Notes under the pieces: generated by a model | Told to the model about the DNA's origin: nothing | Seen by the model: the letters and a program-made list of their open reading frames with translations, nothing else | The model's database searches: none | Position numbers and translations under genes: made by a program | Part shown: positions 14,522 through 63,652 of the stretch, one piece after another | How positions within the stretch are numbered: the stretch's first letter is position 1 | Layout of the letters: every line of letters starts with the position of its first letter | Assembly (NCBI GenBank): GCA_951406725.2 | Contig: OX597815.1 | Span: forward strand, 89,094,001-89,158,000 | DNA from: Octopus vulgaris | Lineage: Eukaryota | Length of the DNA: 64,000 bases | Reading direction: 5' to 3'

Positions 14522-15810
14522 CGAAGGGCGTTCAATAAGTAATGCCCCTGACCCACTTCCCATAGCAGTAGAGCAACGAAACTTGGCACAGTTATTAGTC
14601 TTTTTCTCCATGGGAATCACCCAGAGTTACACATTTCTCCCATTGTTTGATGCAGCTCTGAAGACCGTTTTTGTAGAAGACCCAAGCTTGGTCCTCCAAC
14701 CACGACGTGACTTCAGAAATCAAGGCTGCATCATCTGGGAAACGCTTTCCTTTCAAAAACAACTTCATGGCTGGGAAGAGGTGAAAATCAGAGGGTGCAG
14801 GTCAGGAGAGTAGGGAGAATGGGGGATGAGTTTATAGCCGCACGCCTGTGCTTCTAATCTGGCGACACGCGAGTTGTGGATCGGAGCGTTGTCCTGCAGG
14901 AGGAGGATGCCTTTGCTGATCTTGCCCCGCCTCTTGATTTTGATAGCTTCTCTTAATTTCCTCAAAAGTGAAGCATAATAGACTCCTGTAATTGTGACAC
15001 CCTTTGCCAAGAAATCTGTCATCACTACTCCGTCCTGGTCCCAGAAGACTGTGAGCATGACCTTGCCAGCGGAGGGCTGTACCCTTGCCTTCTTTGGAGG
15101 AGGTGAGTCACGGTGCTTCCACTGCATTGACTGGGCTTTGGTCTCTGGATCATAGTGATGGACCCAGGTTTCATCCTGCGTAATCAGTCTTTTGAAAAAT
15201 TTTGACTCATCTTCTTGGCACATCTTCAAATTCATCCTCGCAATCGACGCGTTCTTGCTTCTGGAAAGGTGTGAGCAGCCTGGGAATCCATCTGGCAGAC
15301 ACCTTTTGCATATGCAAATGGTTATGAATGATAGTTTCCACAGACCCGGTACTAATCTTGACCTCATGGGTTATTTAGCGAATAGTTATGCGTCGATCTT
15401 CCAAAATGGCAGCCTCAACTTGACGGACAGATGCCTCATCAATGGCAGAAGGGGGCGACCAGATCTGGGAGCTGTTTCCACAAAGTTCCGACTATGTTTG
15501 AATTAACGATGCCAGCGTTTTACAAGGTCATATGATGGGGCATCATCACCATAAGTTACTTTTATTTCATCAAAAGACTCCCGTGATGTGCGTCCTTTCA
15601 AATACAAAAACCGCATCACTGCTCGACACTCAACAGGCTCTGTTTCACACTTGACTCAGTTCAAATACCTGTAAATCAGAAACCACAATTAGTTCAGACC
15701 TGTAAGTTGCCACATAATCTATAGAGATATGAATAATTGCACATGCAAAATTTCAGCTAGATCAAACAACTGTAAGTGGGTCAGAGGCATTACTTATTGA
15801 ACGCCCCTCG
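14522..15810 (-). mobile_element. Full-length mariner transposon with disrupted transposase
   Basis: ~37-bp TIRs cgaagggcgttcaataagtaatgcccctgacccactt, TA TSD, 1289 bp; ORF 14765-15367 has TQDETWVHHYDP, LQDNAPIH, HSPYSPDL; frameshifts. Confidence 0.97.
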
Positions 15811-18439: not shown

Positions 18440-20143
18440 CTATATAGTACTACTTACAAAGAATCCAAGTATGAGATATCGATAATAATTTACACAATAA
18501 TTAAATTAGTAGCTTTTAGATTCATCTTCATAATTACCAATCTTTCATCGACAGCATCAGTGGAATGCAAATAATGCTTCTGATAAGCTATGTAATAAAT
18601 TTATGAAAATTTAATTATCACGACAAAGCAGCGTCGACATATTCGCTACATGCTGTGAAATACGCCCCATTGTGTCGCTTCTGATACTACAGTAAAAGGC
18701 AACGGTTTTGATATCAATATGTGAATGTATAATAAGTAATTAACTATCTTTTGTGAATTTTATTACAAATATTATATACCTTCACATATATATACTCATT
18801 CACACATACATACATAGGTATTAAATTTAATATATGATGATGTAGCAAGAGTTACACAATAGCCTAGATTTTTATGCCATGGCACTTGTTAGCCTTAGCA
18901 TGGAGATCTATTCTCTACAATAACTACAGCGACATTTTTATTCCTTTATCTATACTCTATTCTATGTATTGAGTTTTTTTCCGTTTCTAAAACAAAATGT
19001 TATATATATATATATATATATAAAACTTTTATCTTTTACTTCTTTCAGTCATTAGAACTGCTGATATTCTGGGGCGCATGTATATAGATATATGCATGTA
19101 TGTCTGTGTGTGCACATGTGTAAGGGTACTTATATTTGTATACACAGACATACATGCATATACTTACCTACTAGCCTACCAACTTACTTACATACGTATA
19201 TATATATATATATTGATAATATATTATTATTAATATTAGGAAATCAATATCAAAACTCCTCATGAAGATATACACATGTGAAAAGTAATTTTTGTATTAA
19301 AAATATATAAATAAATAAATATAAACATGTATAAAATATATATGTAAGTATGTATAAGTATAAATATATAATGTCTATGACAGTTTAAAAGCTTTGAATT
19401 AATTATTGAAAAGGCAATTGTAGAAGATTTAATGCAATATACAAATGCAGTTACATTAATTAATAATTCACAAAGTAACGTATATATAGGTAGTTCCGTT
19501 AATTTTAAGCAAATATTTTTAGCGCATATACACGCCTTCAAGCCAAATACAGTCACTAATACGACGTCATTAGATACATATATACATAAACTACAGAAAA
19601 ACAAAATTAACTATAAATTGGAATGGTATATAATAGATTCAGTCATACCATACACGCATAAATCTAATAGTTGCCGTCCTGGTATGAAAGAATCACTGTA
19701 TATATTATTATATAAACATAAGAACTTAATAAATTGTCAATCAGGAGCATTTTCAACATGTAGTCATAGGTTTTATGAAACTTTTAAATATTATAGGAAA
19801 TCTAATAAACATTTGGATTAATAAATATATATAGATTCTTCGATTTTTGTGATATTAAAATATAGGGTGATACTTACAAATAGATAGATAGATAAACTGA
19901 TTAGAATTATTGAACTATAAGTAAATTTACAAGACATAAATTATAAATTATACATTAAATAAAGATTGAATAGATATTCTTGGAATTAGAACCCGGGTAC
20001 ATCTAATCAATAACAAATGGACAGTTATAATTGCATTAAATTTAAAAATCTAAAATTTTAATTGGCATCTTCCAATTACAGAAATAAAAATATAAAAGAA
20101 ATAAAAGAAATATTTTGACCAGTTAATAATTTTACAACTACAC

Positions 20144-22188
20144 TTAGGCCTGAGGAGGTGATTGAGGCTATGTCAGACTGCGCCGCGGGTAGGGCGCCGG
20201 GACTGGACGGTCTACCCTATGAGTTGTATAAGAATATGCCAGACTTGTTCGGGCACCTGCTGGCGAATGTCTACGCGAACTGGCAGCAGAACGTGTTTAT
20301 TCCCAGATCTGTGCACCGGGGAGTGGTAACGCTTGTCAGAAAGGACCCGGACAAAGGGGAGTCTGTTGATAATTTTCTGCCCATCACTCTGCTAAACGCA
20401 GAGTTAAAGATTTTGGCCAAAGTGTTATCGAAAAGATTGGCGCATGTCGTGGATGGTCTGATCGGGGAGGCACAGGCATGTGCCGTTCGCGGCAGGACCA
20501 TCCAGGATAATCTCCATCTTATGCGGTACATTTAGATGGGTTTAATAGTGATTCTGGCAAGGGTGGGGCACTGGTCCATTTAGACCAATCTAAGGCATTT
20601 GATAGGGTTGACCATCGCGACCTGGTGTCCGTTCTGGCACAGTTCGACCTGGGTTTTGGCTTCCTCAGGTGGACCATTCAGATTTATGACAACGTCGACT
20701 CGATAGTTCGGGTGAACAGCTTCTTATCAAGGGCGTTCAACATCAAACGCTCGGTTCGTCAAGAGTGTCCGCTCTCCCCGCTTTTGTACGTGATGGCTCC
20801 TGAGCCATTACTGCGAAAATTGAGGGGCATCCCGAGACAGCCAGGTTGTGGAAAGTCGGTTTCAGCTTACGCGGATGACATCGACATGGATCACCTACAG
20901 AGGGTAGGCAAAGCCATTAAGTTTTACGAGACGGTAGCAGGAGCAAAGGTTAATCGTGAAAAGTCAGTCGGCTTGCAGCTCGGCACCCGAAGAGGCAAGT
21001 CGATGCCTTCTGACAGCGTCGTAGGACATTGGACGGAGGGTCCGATTAAGTTGCTTGGAGTTTGGTTTGGACCAGACCTCCAAATAGAGAAGAACTGGGC
21101 CGAGGTATCGAGCAGGGTGAACCACAGTCAAGGCGTGGTCTTGGCGGTGGCTATCCCTGAAAGGGAGGGCGGAGGTAGCCAATGTGTTCATCGCATCAGT
21201 CATCACTTACCGCCTAACTATCGTTCCTTGCCTTGATTCGTGGTTGAACAAACTGGAAATACATCTATTCCACGTTTTGCAGAAGAGCTCGAAACCTCTT
21301 GTGAAACGCTCTACTTGCTGCCAACAATCGTTAAAGGGTGTGGGCTAGGGATGCCTTGGCTGTTGATGCGCAGACGTGCTCTGAGGTTGAGGCATCTGTG
21401 GCTTTACCTGGATGTGGTCTCCGCTGGCGAAACGGATGTTTCCCAGGTTCACTAGTTTAAGTGGACGGGAATCCTGGTTCTATCGAAGATCGAAGCTGGG
21501 TACATGGCTTACAAAGAGTATCAAGGCTCTCCTGCTATTCCGTCGCTCGGGCAATGCCTGCGGTGGGGGTTCCACCGCATTCTTTTATAGAGGGCTCTTA
21601 GAGGCGGAATGTGACGATACTTTAGGATAAATCCTAGATCTCGACGATAATCAGCTGGCCAGTCTGTTCAAACGTACATTCGGGCCGAAGACCCTGGACA
21701 TCTTTCAGAAGTCTCTGGCATGGTACTGTTACAGAGGAGCCTTCCCTGTTCGGGACAAGCTCACAAGGCATGGTGGCTGTGGCTCTTCGACCTGTCCAAG
21801 ATGCAAACAGGATAGGGAAACTGCCTCGCATGCTATTGTTCAATGTTCGGAGGTGTCAGATGTGTGGGTTTATGCTGAAAAAATGTTGTCAAGTGCAGGA
21901 AGTGTACAGCTATCGACTGAGTCTATAGTAAAAATTGACCCTCCTGATTTCCTTTCGATGTAACTCGGCTATCAGTGGCGATGCGGGGCTCGTGGGTCCG
22001 AATTAAACACGCCCCCACTCCATCCATAATGTCTTCCGGTCTGTCCTACAATTCTATTTTATTTTATTTTATTATTTTTTGTAAACTTTTTAATGTAATT
22101 TTTTTTTGTATAATCATTCGCTCATCTGACCCCCAAATCAGATTGTATTGTCCCCTCTTCGTTGGCCCCTTGTGGGTTATAAAAAATC
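20144..22188 (+). mobile_element. L1/Tx1-clade LINE, 5'-truncated ORF2 (RT) plus 3' UTR, pseudogenised
   Basis: APGLDGLPYELYK, PITLLNAELKILAK, LDQSKAFDRVDH, VRQECPLSPLLY, AYADD, C-terminal CPRC..H..C; stops and frameshifts. Confidence 0.92.
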
Positions 22189-22204
22189 AATTTTGCATCT
22201 ACAC

Positions 22205-23886
22205 GTTGAAATTGGTTGTACTATTTGGTGAATTGGGAAAAAGTTGTTGATAAAACGCTTCGCGCGTGCTGCTTGCTGCTGCTTTGCTGTTCTTTTTTCC
22301 CATTTTTAGTGAAAGAGAGAGACGTAGTCTCTCCGTAATAGAGAGCTATGCGAAGGTCGCTGCGGCGAGAGGTGTCGCGTCACTGGTAACAAGGAATGTC
22401 CTGATTGATAAGGAAGAAGTTAAGAGACGTGAACAGTACGTGGGGAGGGAGGGAGAAAGCATTAAGCTGATCTCTCCGACAGAGGCAACAGAGGAAAAGA
22501 ACCTCAAAACGGTTGTGTATAGAAAGAAGGTGGAAAAAGAAAATTGGATGAATAACAGAGGAAAAAATTGAAGAGTGCCTTGGAGAAGTGATGGAAAAGA
22601 CAACCTACGTTGGCAAGGGGTAGCAATTCGGTACGGTTTGCCACAAAGGAAGAGGCGGCCTCGCACTCCACCACCATCCTAAGAACGGAAAGGATTGCAT
22701 TATTGCCCACCTACAGAGGAAGACGAAGCGTCAGGGTCAAAATTTCCACAGTGCCGCTGGAAATAAAAACGGAATGGCTGGTTGCAGCGAAACTGGCGTC
22801 TACAGTAGACGATCCCGAACTAGGTCCAGTAGGTGAAACAAATACGTTGAACTGGCGAGGATTCGGAGTCGAAATGTGGCTTGTCGCCACAGCTGAAGAC
22901 ATCGAGAGAATCCCCTTCCAGATCGAGATTGAGAATGAAATGACGTTAAACGTTGTAGTCGAGGGAAGGAGACCTAATTGCTATCTATGCGGAGTACGAG
23001 AACACATAAGGACAGAGTGTCCCTTATATAAATTTACACAAAGCAAAGAGACAACGGAAAAGGAACAAAAGAAAGTGGAAAAGAAAGAACAGATGCAGGA
23101 GAAAGTACAAACAGAAGCAGAACAATTAGTCAAGAAAGAGAAAGACAGCAAGAAAGACAACAAGAAGAGTGAAATGAAATAATCAAAAGAGGAGAGCAAA
23201 GGAGTTATTAGCCCCCAAAGTAGAGAGAGATGAGGATGAGGGAACACTCAAAAGAAAACAAAGGTAAGAGGATTTTTGAAGAAACAGAAGATGATCCGTA
23301 TAAATATTATGGATCATTTATAACATACAAAAGTTCTTATGAATTAGAGAAAAAAGATCGAAAATGAAGGGAATGAAAAGAGTAAAGCTGGGAGACAAAT
23401 ATGACGTAGATGATGTCGGTGTTTTAGTACATACGGAGAGTTACGTCAAATTCAAGGAGGTCTTCAAAAAGTACATAAAACTGGACAGTTGGTGTCGGTT
23501 ACTGGAATACAGACCTCCCATAATAGGATATGAGAATCTGAAAGGAAAAATGCATTATGTTGGAAATTCATTTATGAAAAAGGGGCAAAAACTGTCGAAA
23601 ATTCTTTTGTAATATTCATTTATGAAAAAAGAAAAAATTGTTTAAAAAATTCTATTGTAATTCATTTATGAAAATAGGAAAAAAAAACTGTCGAAATGTA
23701 ACCACTCGACTTCGGGGGTCGAGTGGGCATTGCGCTTCATTATTATATCTTTCATATTTCATTCGATTTTTAAAAATTTCTTCGTCTTAATTCATCCTCT
23801 TTTTGTATTTTAAGTTCCCCGAGTTTATGTTTGTATTGTTCGTATTGTCCAATCTATGTATAATCCCTTGTGGATAATAAAAAATC
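22205..23886 (+). mobile_element. ORF1-only (HAL1-like) non-autonomous retroelement
   Basis: SYAKVAA N-terminus; VEGRRPNCYLCGVREHIRTEC CCHC knuckle (22610-23182); no EN or RT; own 3' UTR with tail related to the upstream LINE. Confidence 0.75.
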
Positions 23887-24345
23887 AATTTTACAACTAC
23901 ACATATAATTTAAAATATAATTTGATTTTGTATTATGAACTATATTTGGATTACCGGATAATATAATGAATTTTATACAAAAGTATTATGGATTGCTATA
24001 GAGGAATTACCAAGACAAAATTATTATGGGTTGCTACGGAGGAATTACCAAGAAGACATACGAATTTTAAGAGTCTCATACTAAAGTATATACAAATTTC
24101 ATATTTCTAAACTAACTATATAAACTACATTTGGAATACAAGATAATATAACGGATTTTACATATGAATATTACGGATTATTGAAGAAGAATAACCAAGG
24201 AAGTATATATGGATTTAAAGATTTTCATCAAAAGTAGTAATTTTTAATTTTTAATTTATCTTTCAAACAAACACCATTTTATAGTTTTACTTCAATTTTT
24301 TTTAAAAAGCTACTATTCGACATATTATACAAAATTCAAATTTTA

Positions 24346-24437
24346 TATCTCTGAAGAGCAGAAGCGTTGTCTATAAATGCTTATCAATATAGGATTTCAT
24401 TATAGGGACAATTCTTCTGTGAAACGATCGTAAGATG
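24346..24437 (+). ncRNA. Type-I hammerhead ribozyme with extended stem II
   Basis: tatct-CTGAAGA-gcagaag...cttctgt-GAAA-C gatc G-TA-agatg; canonical core. Confidence 0.8.
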
Positions 24438-25075
24438 CTTTAAATAATTAATTCAAAACTTTTAAACTGTCATATACAATATATATTTATACTTATAATA
24501 CTTACATATATTTTTATACATATTTATATTTATTCATTTATATATTTTTAATACAACAATTGTTTTTCAAATGTGTATATCTTTCTGAGGAATTTTGATA
24601 TTGATTTCCTAATATTAGTAATATTATTAGTAATATTATTAAAAAAAACATATATGTATATATCGTTCGTATATAAATAATTTACGTATATAAATAATTT
24701 AATAGTATTAATAATTTGATACATTTGAGCACTCAATATAAATTCAGTATATAATATTATCCTTGAATATATTTAACTAAAGATTTATATATATATATAA
24801 ATATATATGCGTGTGTGCTTGTGTATGTTCACGTGTGTGTGTGTATAGGTACGTATTTACAAATTCACACAACCATCATCCATTTATTCTTCCATCAGTC
24901 CATAGAATCATACATATATACAAGGAAAATAAAACATAGCACCAATCTTTTCAAAATGTGAACGAAAAGGGTAAACACTTTCAAATTTAGGGGAGGTAAC
25001 TGGTTAAAAGATTAATCTCATGTTTATATTCGTTATTAGCGGCGGAAGTAGTGTCATTTCTAAATAGTATTCTGT

Positions 25076-25745
25076 GTATCATACTTAACATGGATACACT
25101 GTAGAAGGCAAGGTATTCTTCTTCAAAAAGCATCTCATATAGACGGATTGTGCTAAAAGAGAACAGAAGAATATCAGTAGCAGGCAAAAATGGTGCAGCA
25201 GCCGCTGTATCATTGTTAAATCCAGTTCCTGCATATTTGCGCATCATTAGTTGTAAGCATACAGACTTAGGTATTCCTCCGCCGCTGCTGGAAGATTCGT
25301 CTGATACGGATATTCTTCTATACTTTTTAGCACTATACGTCTACACATGATGTTTCCTCATGACAAATGTCGTAGCTATGAGGCTTTCTATATCCATGCT
25401 AAGATATACTGAATGCAATTTTGAATTGATAATGTCGCTAATCACGAAATGTTATTCAAGATGCTGGTTATTTGCGACAATAAATAGTTAATCCCCTTTG
25501 CGCTATATCAGTAGAAACTAAATATTTGCAAGCATGTAGATGTTAGAGGATGCTTGCTGCTTATGACGCGCATTTACGCAGAAACCCGGATTTAACAATT
25601 ACAATGCTGCTACTGGACGAATGTTTTCTCCTGCAGATATTTTTCAGTGCTTTTAGTAGAATAAATCTTTACAGGATGCTTCCTGGATACGAATGCTGTA
25701 GCTTCGTAGCTTTCTACACAATATCCACGTTAAGTAATATATACA
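25076..25745. repeat. Three diverged copies of a ~170-bp unit (one inverted)
   Basis: Reverse complement of 25076-25250 aligns by eye with ~25260-25410 and 25562-25745. Confidence 0.65.
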
Positions 25746-28039: not shown

Positions 28040-28079
28040 TAATTATTACTATTAGTAGTAGTAATAATAATAATACTAC

Positions 28080-28111
<32 letters not shown>

Positions 28112-28129
28112 ATGATAATAATAATAATA

Positions 28130-28161
<32 letters not shown>

Positions 28162-28225
28162 AATAATGATGATGATGATAATGATGATAATAATGATGAT
28201 GATGATAATGATGATAATAATAATA
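28040..28225. repeat. (TAG)n/(TAA)n/(TGA)n compound microsatellite
   Basis: Direct inspection. Confidence 0.95.
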
Positions 28226-28744
28226 AACTTCAGACAAATATCATGCCTCCTCAAAAAATCATGCCTCCTCAAAAAATCATGCCTCCTCATTGATATGACT
28301 GTCTCAATCGATATAAACGTATTTGTCACGACCTACCAAAAACTGAGCAAATATAAAGATCTTGAAATAGAAATGAGCAAAATGTGGAACCTGAAGACTA
28401 AAACAATACCTGTTGTCATAGGTGCCCTGGGAATGATAGCAAAAGGGGCTGATTGCTACCTAGCTCAGATGCCAGGAAACCCCAAAATAGCAGAAATTCA
28501 AAAGATAGTGCTCATGGGAACTGCTTATATCCTAAGCAAAATACTTTCTATGTAATCTCAAGTTTTAAAACAAACATAATTTTCTTGTGGCTTCTTAAAC
28601 ATTCTCTTCTTAAACATGTACAAAACCAAATATATGGCACCCTAAGCATAACACCAACATGAACTTCCAACTTGTTGTCTCATGAGGTCTCTGGGTGAGA
28701 CTTGGAGCCAACTTGTACAAATGTAAAGCAAAAGTCAAACATAA

Positions 28745-28820: not shown

Positions 28821-29280
28821 ATACACCAGGTGTAAGGTTTTAGCACATGTAGAGTATAAATCAAGACATGACAGAATTCGGCAATATCTATACTAGATAT
28901 GTCAGCATCATAAAATCAAAACTGCTGACAAATTGTATAAGCGCCACCCTGAAACTGAGGGAGAAAATGTATCCATTCTTTGGGACTCTCCAGAACATAC
29001 GGACTGAACCATCAAAGCTAATAAACCAGATATTTTAGTGAAAGACCAAAACAATAAAGTGTGTTTATAGATTGACATGAGCGTACTTTGTGATCTCGGC
29101 AAAAAAATTTGATAAGCTGAGAAAATATTACTGATTGAAATCAAAAAAAATATGGCTTCTCTAGATGGTTACAATACCATAGATTGTAGGCGCACTTGGA
29201 ATGATTAAAAAAAGGGACTGAAAATTATTTGAGGATGATCCTTGGCTTACTATCCATGTAGGAAATGCAATAGATTGTCT
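28821..29280 (+). mobile_element. Second R4/Dong-like RLE fragment
   Basis: YKSRHDRI, VSILWD, TIKANKPDILVKD..CL*ID, IVGALGMI remnants. Confidence 0.8.
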
Positions 29281-29560
29281 TCAATGGTAATTGAGAAAGA
29301 AAGCAAACTATGCTGGATCATAGATATAGAGTACCTAGCTGATATAGAATACCTAGCTGACATCAAAGTATGCGATAAGATAGAAGGAAAAGTCGATAGA
29401 TATGACAAGTTAGCTTGGGAAGTTAAGCAGTTGCAGTGGATGAAAAAGGTGGTAGTTGTACCAATAATTGTTGGAGCCATGGGAACAATGAGTAAAAATC
29501 TCGAGAAGTATTGGTAGTGAACAGCTGACACCGTAGTATTAGAAGCTGTACAAATGCACT
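29281..29560 (+). mobile_element. Third R4/Dong-like RLE fragment
   Basis: CWIIDI...KVDRYDKLAWEVKQLQW..VVVVPIIVGAMG. Confidence 0.8.
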
Positions 29561-63174: not shown

Positions 63175-63408
63175 TACCTTTTTCTTTATTGCCCACAAGG
63201 GGCTAAACATAGAGGGGACAAACGAGGACAGACAAACGGAGTAAATCGATTACATCGACCCCAATGCGTAACTGGTGCTTAATTTATCGACCCCGAAAGG
63301 ATGAAAGGCAAAGTCGACCTCGGCGGAATTTGAACTCAGAACGCAGCGACAGACGAAATACCGCTAAGCATTTTGCCCGGCGTGCTAACGTTTCTACTAG
63401 GTCGCTGT
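63175..63408 (-). mobile_element. Young tRNA-SINE with Tx1-like LINE tail
   Basis: gttctgagttcaaattccgccgaggtcgac core; tail ttgtcccctctatgtttagccccttgtgggcaataaa. Confidence 0.9.
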
Positions 63409-63652
63409 TTTCAATTTTGTTCTCTGCAGAATTAAATTATACCTATTTATATGTCAGCGTGAATGGTATACATGCATATACATATATACACACACGCATG
63501 CAGACACAGATACACAGACACACGCACGCATACACACACAGATACGGACAGACACACACACACACATATAAATATTGGATGAGAAAGTCGAACAAAGAAC
63601 TCAATCCAAGGAAGATTACTAAATAACTACATACATAAATGTCTATACATGC

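Follow-up and report, generated by a model that had tools for sequence, protein, structure and literature searches.

Why should two unlike retrotransposon units stand one behind the other at a single position, each bounded by the same 16 nucleotides? The question is raised by a locus of Octopus vulgaris that lies within the window analysed here, a stretch of 64,000 nucleotides of contig OX597815.1. The arrangement likely arose by double insertion, with a 5'-truncated LINE and a related ORF1-only unit, probably full length, both placed within the remnant of a Penelope-like element (Table 1); the major difficulty is to explain how one cut came to be used twice.

Table 1. Features of the locus, with positions in the window.
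Feature	Position	Strand	Evidence or remark
Inverted copy of host 3' end (Penelope-type inverted terminal arrangement)	19221-19411	-	91% to 24439-24627 over 191 nt
Left host part: 5'-truncated GIY-YIG remnant and AT-rich downstream DNA	19412-20127	+	weak Pfam match
Candidate promoter: TATAAAA 20091-20097, initiator-like CCAGTT 20119-20124	20091-20124	+	sequence, chance tests
Target-site duplication, copy 1	20128-20143	+	motif match
5'-truncated, decayed L1-group (Tx1-like) LINE	20144-22188	+	domain matches; 48-71% to relative P0004
3' tail common to LINE and ORF1 unit	22145-22188	+	counterpart 23842-23886; resembles SINE tail 63182-63221
Target-site duplication, copy 2	22189-22204	+	14/16 here; 15/16 X1, X2; 16/16 X3, X7
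ORF1-only unit	22205-23886	+	homology, paralogs, motif and fold comparison
Target-site duplication, copy 3	23887-23902	+	motif match
Right host part	23903-24627	+	minimal type I hammerhead motif at 24347-24436

Three Copies of One Target Site

The sequence AATTTTACAACTACAC occurs exactly at both outer ends of the pair and with 14 of 16 letters at its junction, as a sequence-only reading had reported and motif comparison confirms. The probability that any one site matches exactly is 1.2e-9, and nine matches with at most three mismatches were counted against 2.37 expected. Contigs of the same locus were taken from four public runs (X1, X2, X3, and X7); in X3 and X7 the middle motif is complete, and in X1 and X2 it differs at one position. 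The middle copy was formerly identical to the outer two, and for this reason we regard it as a true local target-site duplication. Its two mismatches in the window are later changes, and the idea that they are the trace of a foreign source locus was rejected. Neither is the middle motif the normal 5' end of the ORF1 unit: a paralog aligns only from 22205 onward, preceded by 144 unlike letters.

Both insertions duplicated exactly 16 nt, and the bases flanking the three copies differ on each side. The junction was recovered in all four runs, each time at single-locus depth, and either unit alone in none of them. With the local target repeated at the junction between two unlike units, the locus has the build of a double-insertion dimer. 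An Rfam search of 18500-25500 (E<=1) returned only microsatellite-driven miRNA matches, which places the 16-mer outside any known RNA gene.

A Penelope-Like Host

The proposal that both units lie inside a Penelope element agrees with what surrounds them. An inverted repeat of ~190 nt encloses the whole double insertion, an arrangement of terminal repeats as in the Penelope elements of PMC3846280 (available text). The frame of the GIY-YIG remnant is open from 19381 to 19821; its Pfam match is weak (E 0.05, below the cut-off), and a homology search gave no longer homolog. This left part of the host is repeated in four runs. On the right, the hammerhead motif, a candidate ribozyme, had no Rfam match at E<=1; its pattern and its link to Penelope elements are ones that we presume. 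The inverted terminal arrangement and the hammerhead motif together mark the host as Penelope-like.

A Truncated LINE and Its ORF1-Only Relative

The upstream unit contains ORF2 from just before the reverse transcriptase (RT) domain, the RT, a C-terminal zinc finger, a shortened C-terminus, and a 3' UTR of ~180 nt; it has neither endonuclease nor ORF1. The matches to RVT_1 (E 8e-12) and zf-RVT (E 7e-10) in Pfam reveal an RT with a C-terminal CCHC-type zinc domain, a feature of the L1 group and the Tx1 clade. Decay amounts to at least two frameshifts and five stops. The APE endonuclease (PF03372) is present in relatives at 45-51% identity and was lost here through truncation. One relative, P0028, matches L1 ORF2p over residues 3-856 (E 9e-63) as against 1e-27 for R2, and no named Tx1 reference stood among the RT homology matches. 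The label Tx1-like is in part assumed, and in part it follows from domain make-up (PMC5203782, available text). Scans for related loci with P0004 gave no match in viral or prokaryotic contigs.

The downstream unit has a leader of 133 nt and a decayed ORF1 (22338 to ~23612), with one CCHC knuckle and a K/E-rich tail, followed by a 3' UTR of ~270 nt with a GC hairpin near 23702-23726. The ORF1 is 57% identical to an Octopus bimaculoides CCHC protein, gives a zf-CCHC match, and shows at least two frameshifts and two stops in its aligned part. A homolog (P0001) is predicted to carry two RRMs, its model having tandem-RRM proteins as best matches (E ~1e-4, low TM scores); RRM plus CCHC knuckle is the Type I ORF1 of the L1 group and Tx1 clade. 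Paralogs start at 22205-22212 and have the 5' end and body in common with the unit, in contigs too short for the absence of ORF2 to be read, and the unit is probably full length.

Seven ORF2 queries found no match in this second unit. The domain matches bear out the order that had been proposed, namely ORF2, 3' UTR, and then an ORF1-only unit with its own 3' UTR. The comparison with HAL1 likewise holds in kind: the unit encodes ORF1 without ORF2, shares its tail with an RT-bearing LINE, and has its own duplication. HAL1 proper, which stems from mammalian L1, was rejected; the named homologs are Octopus proteins, and there was no Transposase_22 match. A single predicted protein, P0273, points to ordinary two-ORF parents, since one frame leads from the same ORF1 family (37%) into the same ORF2 family (46%).

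The 3' ends of the two units are 80% alike over their last 61 nt, motif included. The two tails have no common predicted fold (z -2.1 and +0.4), and in a tail-pattern scan of metagenome contigs all seven loci were unrelated chance matches. A further joint of tail to truncated LINE, with other letters between, was seen in two of the four runs; its spacer is absent from the window, and the length of that spacer stays unfixed, since a part of it looks like LINE sequence.

Is the 16-mer a Family Target?

Repeated site-specific insertion into a Penelope-like element had been offered as one explanation. Two insertions into one site did take place, but the flanks of relatives, compared on the downstream side of the tail, speak against a family-wide specificity for the 16-mer. 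Flank agreement among relatives is 0.45-0.58 (12 rows). Unlike DNA follows the tail in 15 of the 20 listed tail pieces of close relatives, and none of the 20 passes through the motif; the listing covers 24 of 185 loose-end rows and 32 of 871 pieces. These relatives are ~87-95% alike over the last 55-90 nt, with unlike flanks of up to 1,481 letters (one contig). Summed contig depth in X1, which is not copy number, is 3,783 at 22185-94 but only 123 at 22195-204, of which 52 come from the studied locus alone. Among the listed pieces, then, copies do not gather on one target sequence or host repeat in the manner of Tx1L or Tx1-Mar. Random flanks across the genome had been named beforehand as one half of a refuting result; heterogeneous flanks were indeed found, while the middle motif is still a true duplication. 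One further contig (X1, X2, X7) carries the tail and the first 9-10 motif positions, and may represent either the 3' end of the locus itself or another insertion of this kind.

Why Was One Site Used Twice?

Chance re-use of the site would have a probability of ~1e-5 (5-bit preference, 1000 copies), so some factor must couple the two insertions. The explanation that we tentatively place first, at a little under an even chance, is that of sequential insertions at the same cut, with an upstream signal, and not the 16 bases, directing the second of them to the site. From known LINE biology, an ORF2 protein of the family that recognises the common tail would copy both RNAs, and each duplication would result from target-primed reverse transcription at two cuts spaced by 16 nt. 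The ORF1-only unit would insert first. The upstream junction would retain the signal, the TATA box and initiator-like motif of the Penelope-like host, and the LINE would then insert between this signal and the ORF1 unit and become truncated.

The candidate promoter is suggestive only. Its TATA box lies 37 and its initiator-like motif 7 bases upstream of the site, with the initiator A 30 nt past the first T. Such a pair preceded the site in 7 and 11 of 20,000 shuffles and precedes 0.18% of window positions, figures that belong to a post hoc reading in which the initiator pattern was loosened (first base C or T) after the sequence had been inspected. Within ~1.1 kb on the upstream side there are two more pairs, whose initiator A is at 19047 and at 19641. 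A TATA box by itself stands ahead of 5% of positions in the window, a share that rises to 14% in the left part of the host. The Penelope pLTR of Adineta carries TATA and initiator-like motifs (PMC3846280, available text). R1 places new copies in the 5' duplication (PMC2718515, available text), and in autonomous/non-autonomous pairs of trypanosomes the duplication is the sole separator (PMC3820030, available text). The further joint of tail to truncated LINE also speaks for the sequential reading, as does a second ORF1-type 5' end that stands behind a tail-like stretch. We speculate, with rather more doubt, that an endonuclease-bearing LINE family, along with the ORF1-only unit it carries, inserts by position, a few bases past RNA polymerase II start signals, including Penelope promoters. 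Under such a positional rule the upstream signal would outlive each insertion, copies would stack at one base, and downstream flanks would look random.

Both units could instead have arrived in one event from two RNAs, which we think unlikely. Having copied the ORF1 RNA, the enzyme would switch to the 16-nt top-strand overhang as its template, and the original 3' end, regenerated in this way, would prime the LINE RNA. This second priming would precede ligation and give three identical copies with no site preference needed. Such a route would explain, with no extra signal, both the heterogeneous flanks and why the two cuts are in exact register; decay of the two units is roughly similar, although similar decay does not mean the same date, and both are present in all four runs. 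End-to-end template jumping has been described for R2 (cited in PMC2718515, available text), but no description of such re-priming was found in the literature searched, and LINE dimers in the literature have been interpreted as the product of independent insertions (10.1101/158386 and PMC3820030, available text).

No better in our judgement, and again improbable, is that the two insertions followed each other because the endonuclease loosely prefers a TTT run, here two bases past the cut, at a site unusually favourable or accessible, or because the 5' end of a resident full-length ORF1 unit attracted the newcomer. Among the listed rows, flank consensus rows often begin with (G/T)CTT and several tail pieces reach AATTTT, and relative site specificity yields such tandems in trypanosomes (PMC3820030, available text); nevertheless, with a preference of 5-10 bits the odds of re-use for each resident copy amount to no more than 1e-5 to 4e-4. 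For attraction to the 5' end, a tail-like stretch precedes one of two other ORF1-type 5' ends (X3 record 23; 24 of 32 letters alike, chance 2e-8; different spacer), yet a 609-nt paralog has no tail upstream.

Considerably less probable is a small subfamily with sequence specificity for a site in Penelope elements, as that of Tx1L for Tx1D. Tx1 families that target other transposons do exist (PMC4494074, available text), and the contig of X1, X2, and X7 would fit; against it stand the unlike flanks in which close relatives end, the listed pieces that never pass the motif, and a depth past 22195 of only ~2x the locus. Arrival of the pair in a single read-through transcript of some source dimer, the split ORF1/ORF2 system that the sequence-only reading had also considered, is very improbable: a single outer duplication surrounds both units and the pair supplies ORF2 and ORF1 of related families, but the spacer formerly agreed with the local target at every position, which a distant source could supply only with strict specificity, the junction contigs have single-locus depth in 4/4 runs, and P0273 points to two-ORF parents.

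Relation to Known Systems

A plain double insertion is a known process, and dimers split by a duplication have been published for other LINEs. What the octopus locus contributes is a dated case whose alleles establish the spacer as a duplication of the local site, together with an ORF1-only passenger from a lineage of Tx1-like type. No description of such a passenger was found in the literature searched, and supplementary family lists or repeat libraries may contain it; the available text of a 2018 paper names only Jockey, L1, and CR1 origins for ORF1-only elements (PMC5786205). If true, either the upstream promoter or one-event re-priming would account for the stacking of a LINE at single-base precision despite unrelated flanks, and public octopus assemblies allow a test of either reading.

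The parallels that follow come from the available parts of the papers cited. The trypanosome pairs ingi/RIME, L1Tc/NARTc, and Tvingi/TvSIDER1 are alike in being tandems that pair an autonomous with a non-autonomous element, with a duplicated target between and loose specificity; they differ in belonging to the ingi clade, in a 12-nt duplication, and in non-coding partners with a common 5' signature (PMC3820030), whereas the octopus partner encodes ORF1 and has its 3' tail in common with the LINE. Dimers of jockey and other Drosophila LINEs carry a target copy in the junction, as here (10.1101/158386), and so do tandem R1 arrays, with additions in the 5' duplication (PMC2718515). In contrast to the octopus units, these dimers and arrays join members of the same family, and R1 is strictly 28S-specific. 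HAL1, HeT-A, and Ag-Sponge resemble the octopus unit in having ORF1 only and a LINE-like 3' end (PMC5786205, PMC5753468), but their clades of origin are L1, Jockey, and CR1, and the octopus ORF1 is of the Tx1-like type with two RRMs and CCHC. Tx1L in Tx1D, and the crocodilian Tx1-Mar with SINEU in Mariner-N4, likewise place an L1-group LINE in a transposon with partners adjacent; they prefer their host transposon (PMC4494074), whereas the close relatives of the octopus LINE have unrelated flanks.

Three copies of one target site

A LINE fragment, Tx1-like by its domain make-up, and an ORF1-only unit lie between three copies of the 16-mer AATTTTACAACTACAC, the outer two exact and the middle one with two mismatches in the window sequence; the probability of a perfect match at any one position is 1.2e-9. 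The locus was compared with contigs of four public sequencing runs (X1, X2, X3 and X7) that carry three organism labels, and for the middle motif contig rows were matched to contigs via depth and distance from the end. In all four runs, a contig with the depth of a single locus spans the junction of the two units. Between the X3 contig and the window there are only two differences in 150 nt, and because both are the motif mismatches, the middle copy is 16/16 in this run. The same holds for X7, where the junction contig has 9 differences in 447 nt and a second contig of the locus 12 in 595 nt; in X1 and X2 the middle copy is 15/16. Judged by these contigs, the window's two mismatches are later point changes and the middle motif is a true target-site duplication. 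The three-copy arrangement noted in the sequence-only reading is confirmed.

Three features of the surrounding host fit a truncated Penelope-like element: a weak match to GIY-YIG, a 190-nt inverted repeat that encloses the locus, and a minimal hammerhead motif, which Rfam did not detect.

Features of the locus and other elements of the window
Feature	Position	Strand	Remark
Penelope-like remnant (host)	19221-24627		encloses both units
TATAAAA	20091
CCAGTT	20119
Motif copy 1	20128-20143		exact
LINE fragment	20144-22188
Motif copy 2	22189-22204		two mismatches
ORF1 unit	22205-23886
Three copies of a 46-48-nt repeat	23565-23685		3' region of ORF1 unit
Predicted strong GC hairpin	23702-23726		3' region of ORF1 unit; z -4.1
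Motif copy 3	23887-23902		exact
Minimal type I hammerhead motif, long stem II insert	24347-24436	+	sequence pattern, in host
Presumed Mariner-type transposase remnant	14765-15370	-	by sequence motifs
Presumed endonuclease end, first	28043-28555	+
Presumed endonuclease end, second	29239-29517	-
SINE, ~254 nt	63180-63433	-	between 11-nt direct repeats

The LINE fragment and the ORF1 unit

The LINE starts within ORF2, immediately 5' of the RT domain (residue 216 of the related predicted protein P0004 falls at 20152), and retains the RT and a C-terminal zinc domain, with at least two frameshifts and at least five stops. In the ORF1 unit, a leader of 133 nt precedes the decayed ORF1, which is followed by a 3' UTR belonging to the unit; seven ORF2 queries found no match in the unit. 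Over 61 nt the 3' ends of the two units are 80% alike, and named homologs are Octopus and Argonauta proteins. The model of one ORF1 homolog, P0001 of O. bimaculoides, has a mean pLDDT of 76.8, and its best matches, though weak, are tandem-RRM proteins; taken together with the CCHC knuckle, they make this a type I ORF1, the type that combines RRM and CCHC knuckle (PMC5203782).

A 609-nt ORF1 paralog, found in three of the four runs, aligns only from 22205 onwards and is preceded there by 144 unlike letters, which rules out that the middle motif is simply the unit's normal 5' end. Since a third ORF1-type start lies only a few bases away from this position, the unit is probably full length.

Contig depth over 23616-23983 is far above that of the preceding ORF1 end, pointing to a UTR common to other families. 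Pieces of this ORF1 family also occur in two predicted host proteins, P0244 and P0252 (WD40, LDL-receptor class A), where they are probably gene-calling artefacts or exonised copies.

How one site probably came to be used twice

Very probably, two RNAs entered the locus by local insertion at one site, a reading now better supported than from the window sequence alone. Both RNAs, which share a tail, would have gone in at the same cut, and each would have left 16 duplicated nucleotides. With ~1000 LINE copies, roughly estimated from depth, and an assumed 2.7-Gb genome, a loose site preference gives re-use odds for a given site of 1e-5 to 4e-4, so that a coupling cause is needed.

We tentatively favour an upstream signal as what steered the re-use, the candidate being a promoter-like pair of TATA and initiator-like motifs: the A of the initiator-like CCAGTT lies 30 nt past the first T of TATAAAA, and from this A it is 7 nt to the cut. 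Pairs of this kind stand before 0.18% of the positions in the window and arise in 7 and 11 of 20,000 shuffles, for a pattern picked after the sequence had been seen; two additional pairs lie within ~1.1 kb upstream. TATA and initiator-like motifs are described from the pLTR of an Adineta Penelope (PMC3846280, in part). A signal of this kind would outlast the first insertion and leave no trace in 3' flanks, and it predicts that the ORF1 unit arrived first and the LINE second, resembling R1 arrays, which grow into the 5' duplication (PMC2718515, in part).

Re-priming within a single event is unlikely. Similarly doubtful is a loose site preference, or attraction to a resident 5' end.

Strict specificity for the Penelope 16-mer, as the sequence-only reading had suggested, is improbable and finds no support in the flanks of relatives. 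Summed contig depth in X1, a rough guide only, falls from 87,730 (22155-64) to 3,783 (22185-94) and 123 (22195-204), the locus itself standing at 52; part of the top value probably comes from other families and from SINEs whose tails are alike. Among 32 listed pieces of 871, 20 span the LINE 3' end (starting no later than 22131 and ending no earlier than 22186), some being the same locus in several runs (6 distinct contigs within X2). None of the 20 extends past 22195, and 15 continue into 24 to 1,481 unlike letters. Agreement is 0.45-0.58 among the 12 listed 3' loose-end rows (24 of 185 rows shown; 3-17 contigs each). In favour of specificity, one further contig (X1, X2, X7) joins a tail to the first 9-10 motif positions and may be either the 3' end of the present locus or a second insertion at a like site. 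On these flanks, AATTTTACAACTACAC does not appear to be a family-wide target.

Nor are tandems confined to this 16-mer. One X3 contig (record 23) runs from a tail-like stretch through a different spacer into another ORF1-type 5' end (chance 2e-8), so that such a stretch precedes one of the two other ORF1-type 5' ends seen; this end is divergent, its leader showing a 121-nt skip. X2 and X7 contain a joint from 22188 to 21633, in which the tail is followed by 27 other letters and a truncated LINE. The joint stands at several times single-locus depth, possibly because several LINE 3' ends lie in a short tandem array.

That the pair was co-mobilised from a source dimer, the other proposal of that reading, is very unlikely, because the spacer is the same as the local target and contigs across the junction show the depth of one locus. 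One predicted protein, P0273 from a contig of 1,288 nt, joins the first half of this ORF1 family to the zinc-finger region of this ORF2 family; it is likely an internal-deletion derivative and suggests that the parents of the elements were ordinary two-ORF LINEs.

Comparison with known systems

The arrangement at the locus is real and very probably a double insertion; on present evidence it reflects neither a Penelope-specific family nor a co-mobilised pair. LINE dimers whose junction contains the target are described from Drosophila (10.1101/158386), autonomous/non-autonomous tandems with only the duplication between them from trypanosomes (PMC3820030), ORF1-only derivatives from the Jockey, L1 and CR1 clades (PMC5786205, PMC5753468), and some Tx1 families that target other transposons (PMC4494074). 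A 2026 O. vulgaris repeat annotation reports 13 recently active L1-Tx1 families (PMC13282606); in a word search, its main text lacked 'ORF1', 'target' and 'nested'. Searches of a literature with subscription journals mostly outside it turned up neither a cephalopod ORF1-only element of Tx1-like type nor re-priming at a cut that has been regenerated, and no Tx1-like LINE aimed at polymerase II starts.

Other elements in the window

The last 40 nt of the SINE are 82.5% like the LINE tail, and by this likeness the LINE lineage may mobilise it; we take its core to resemble a Deu/Nin domain. The two fragments that we presume to be restriction-like endonuclease ends of R2/R4-type LINEs adjoin triplet microsatellites.
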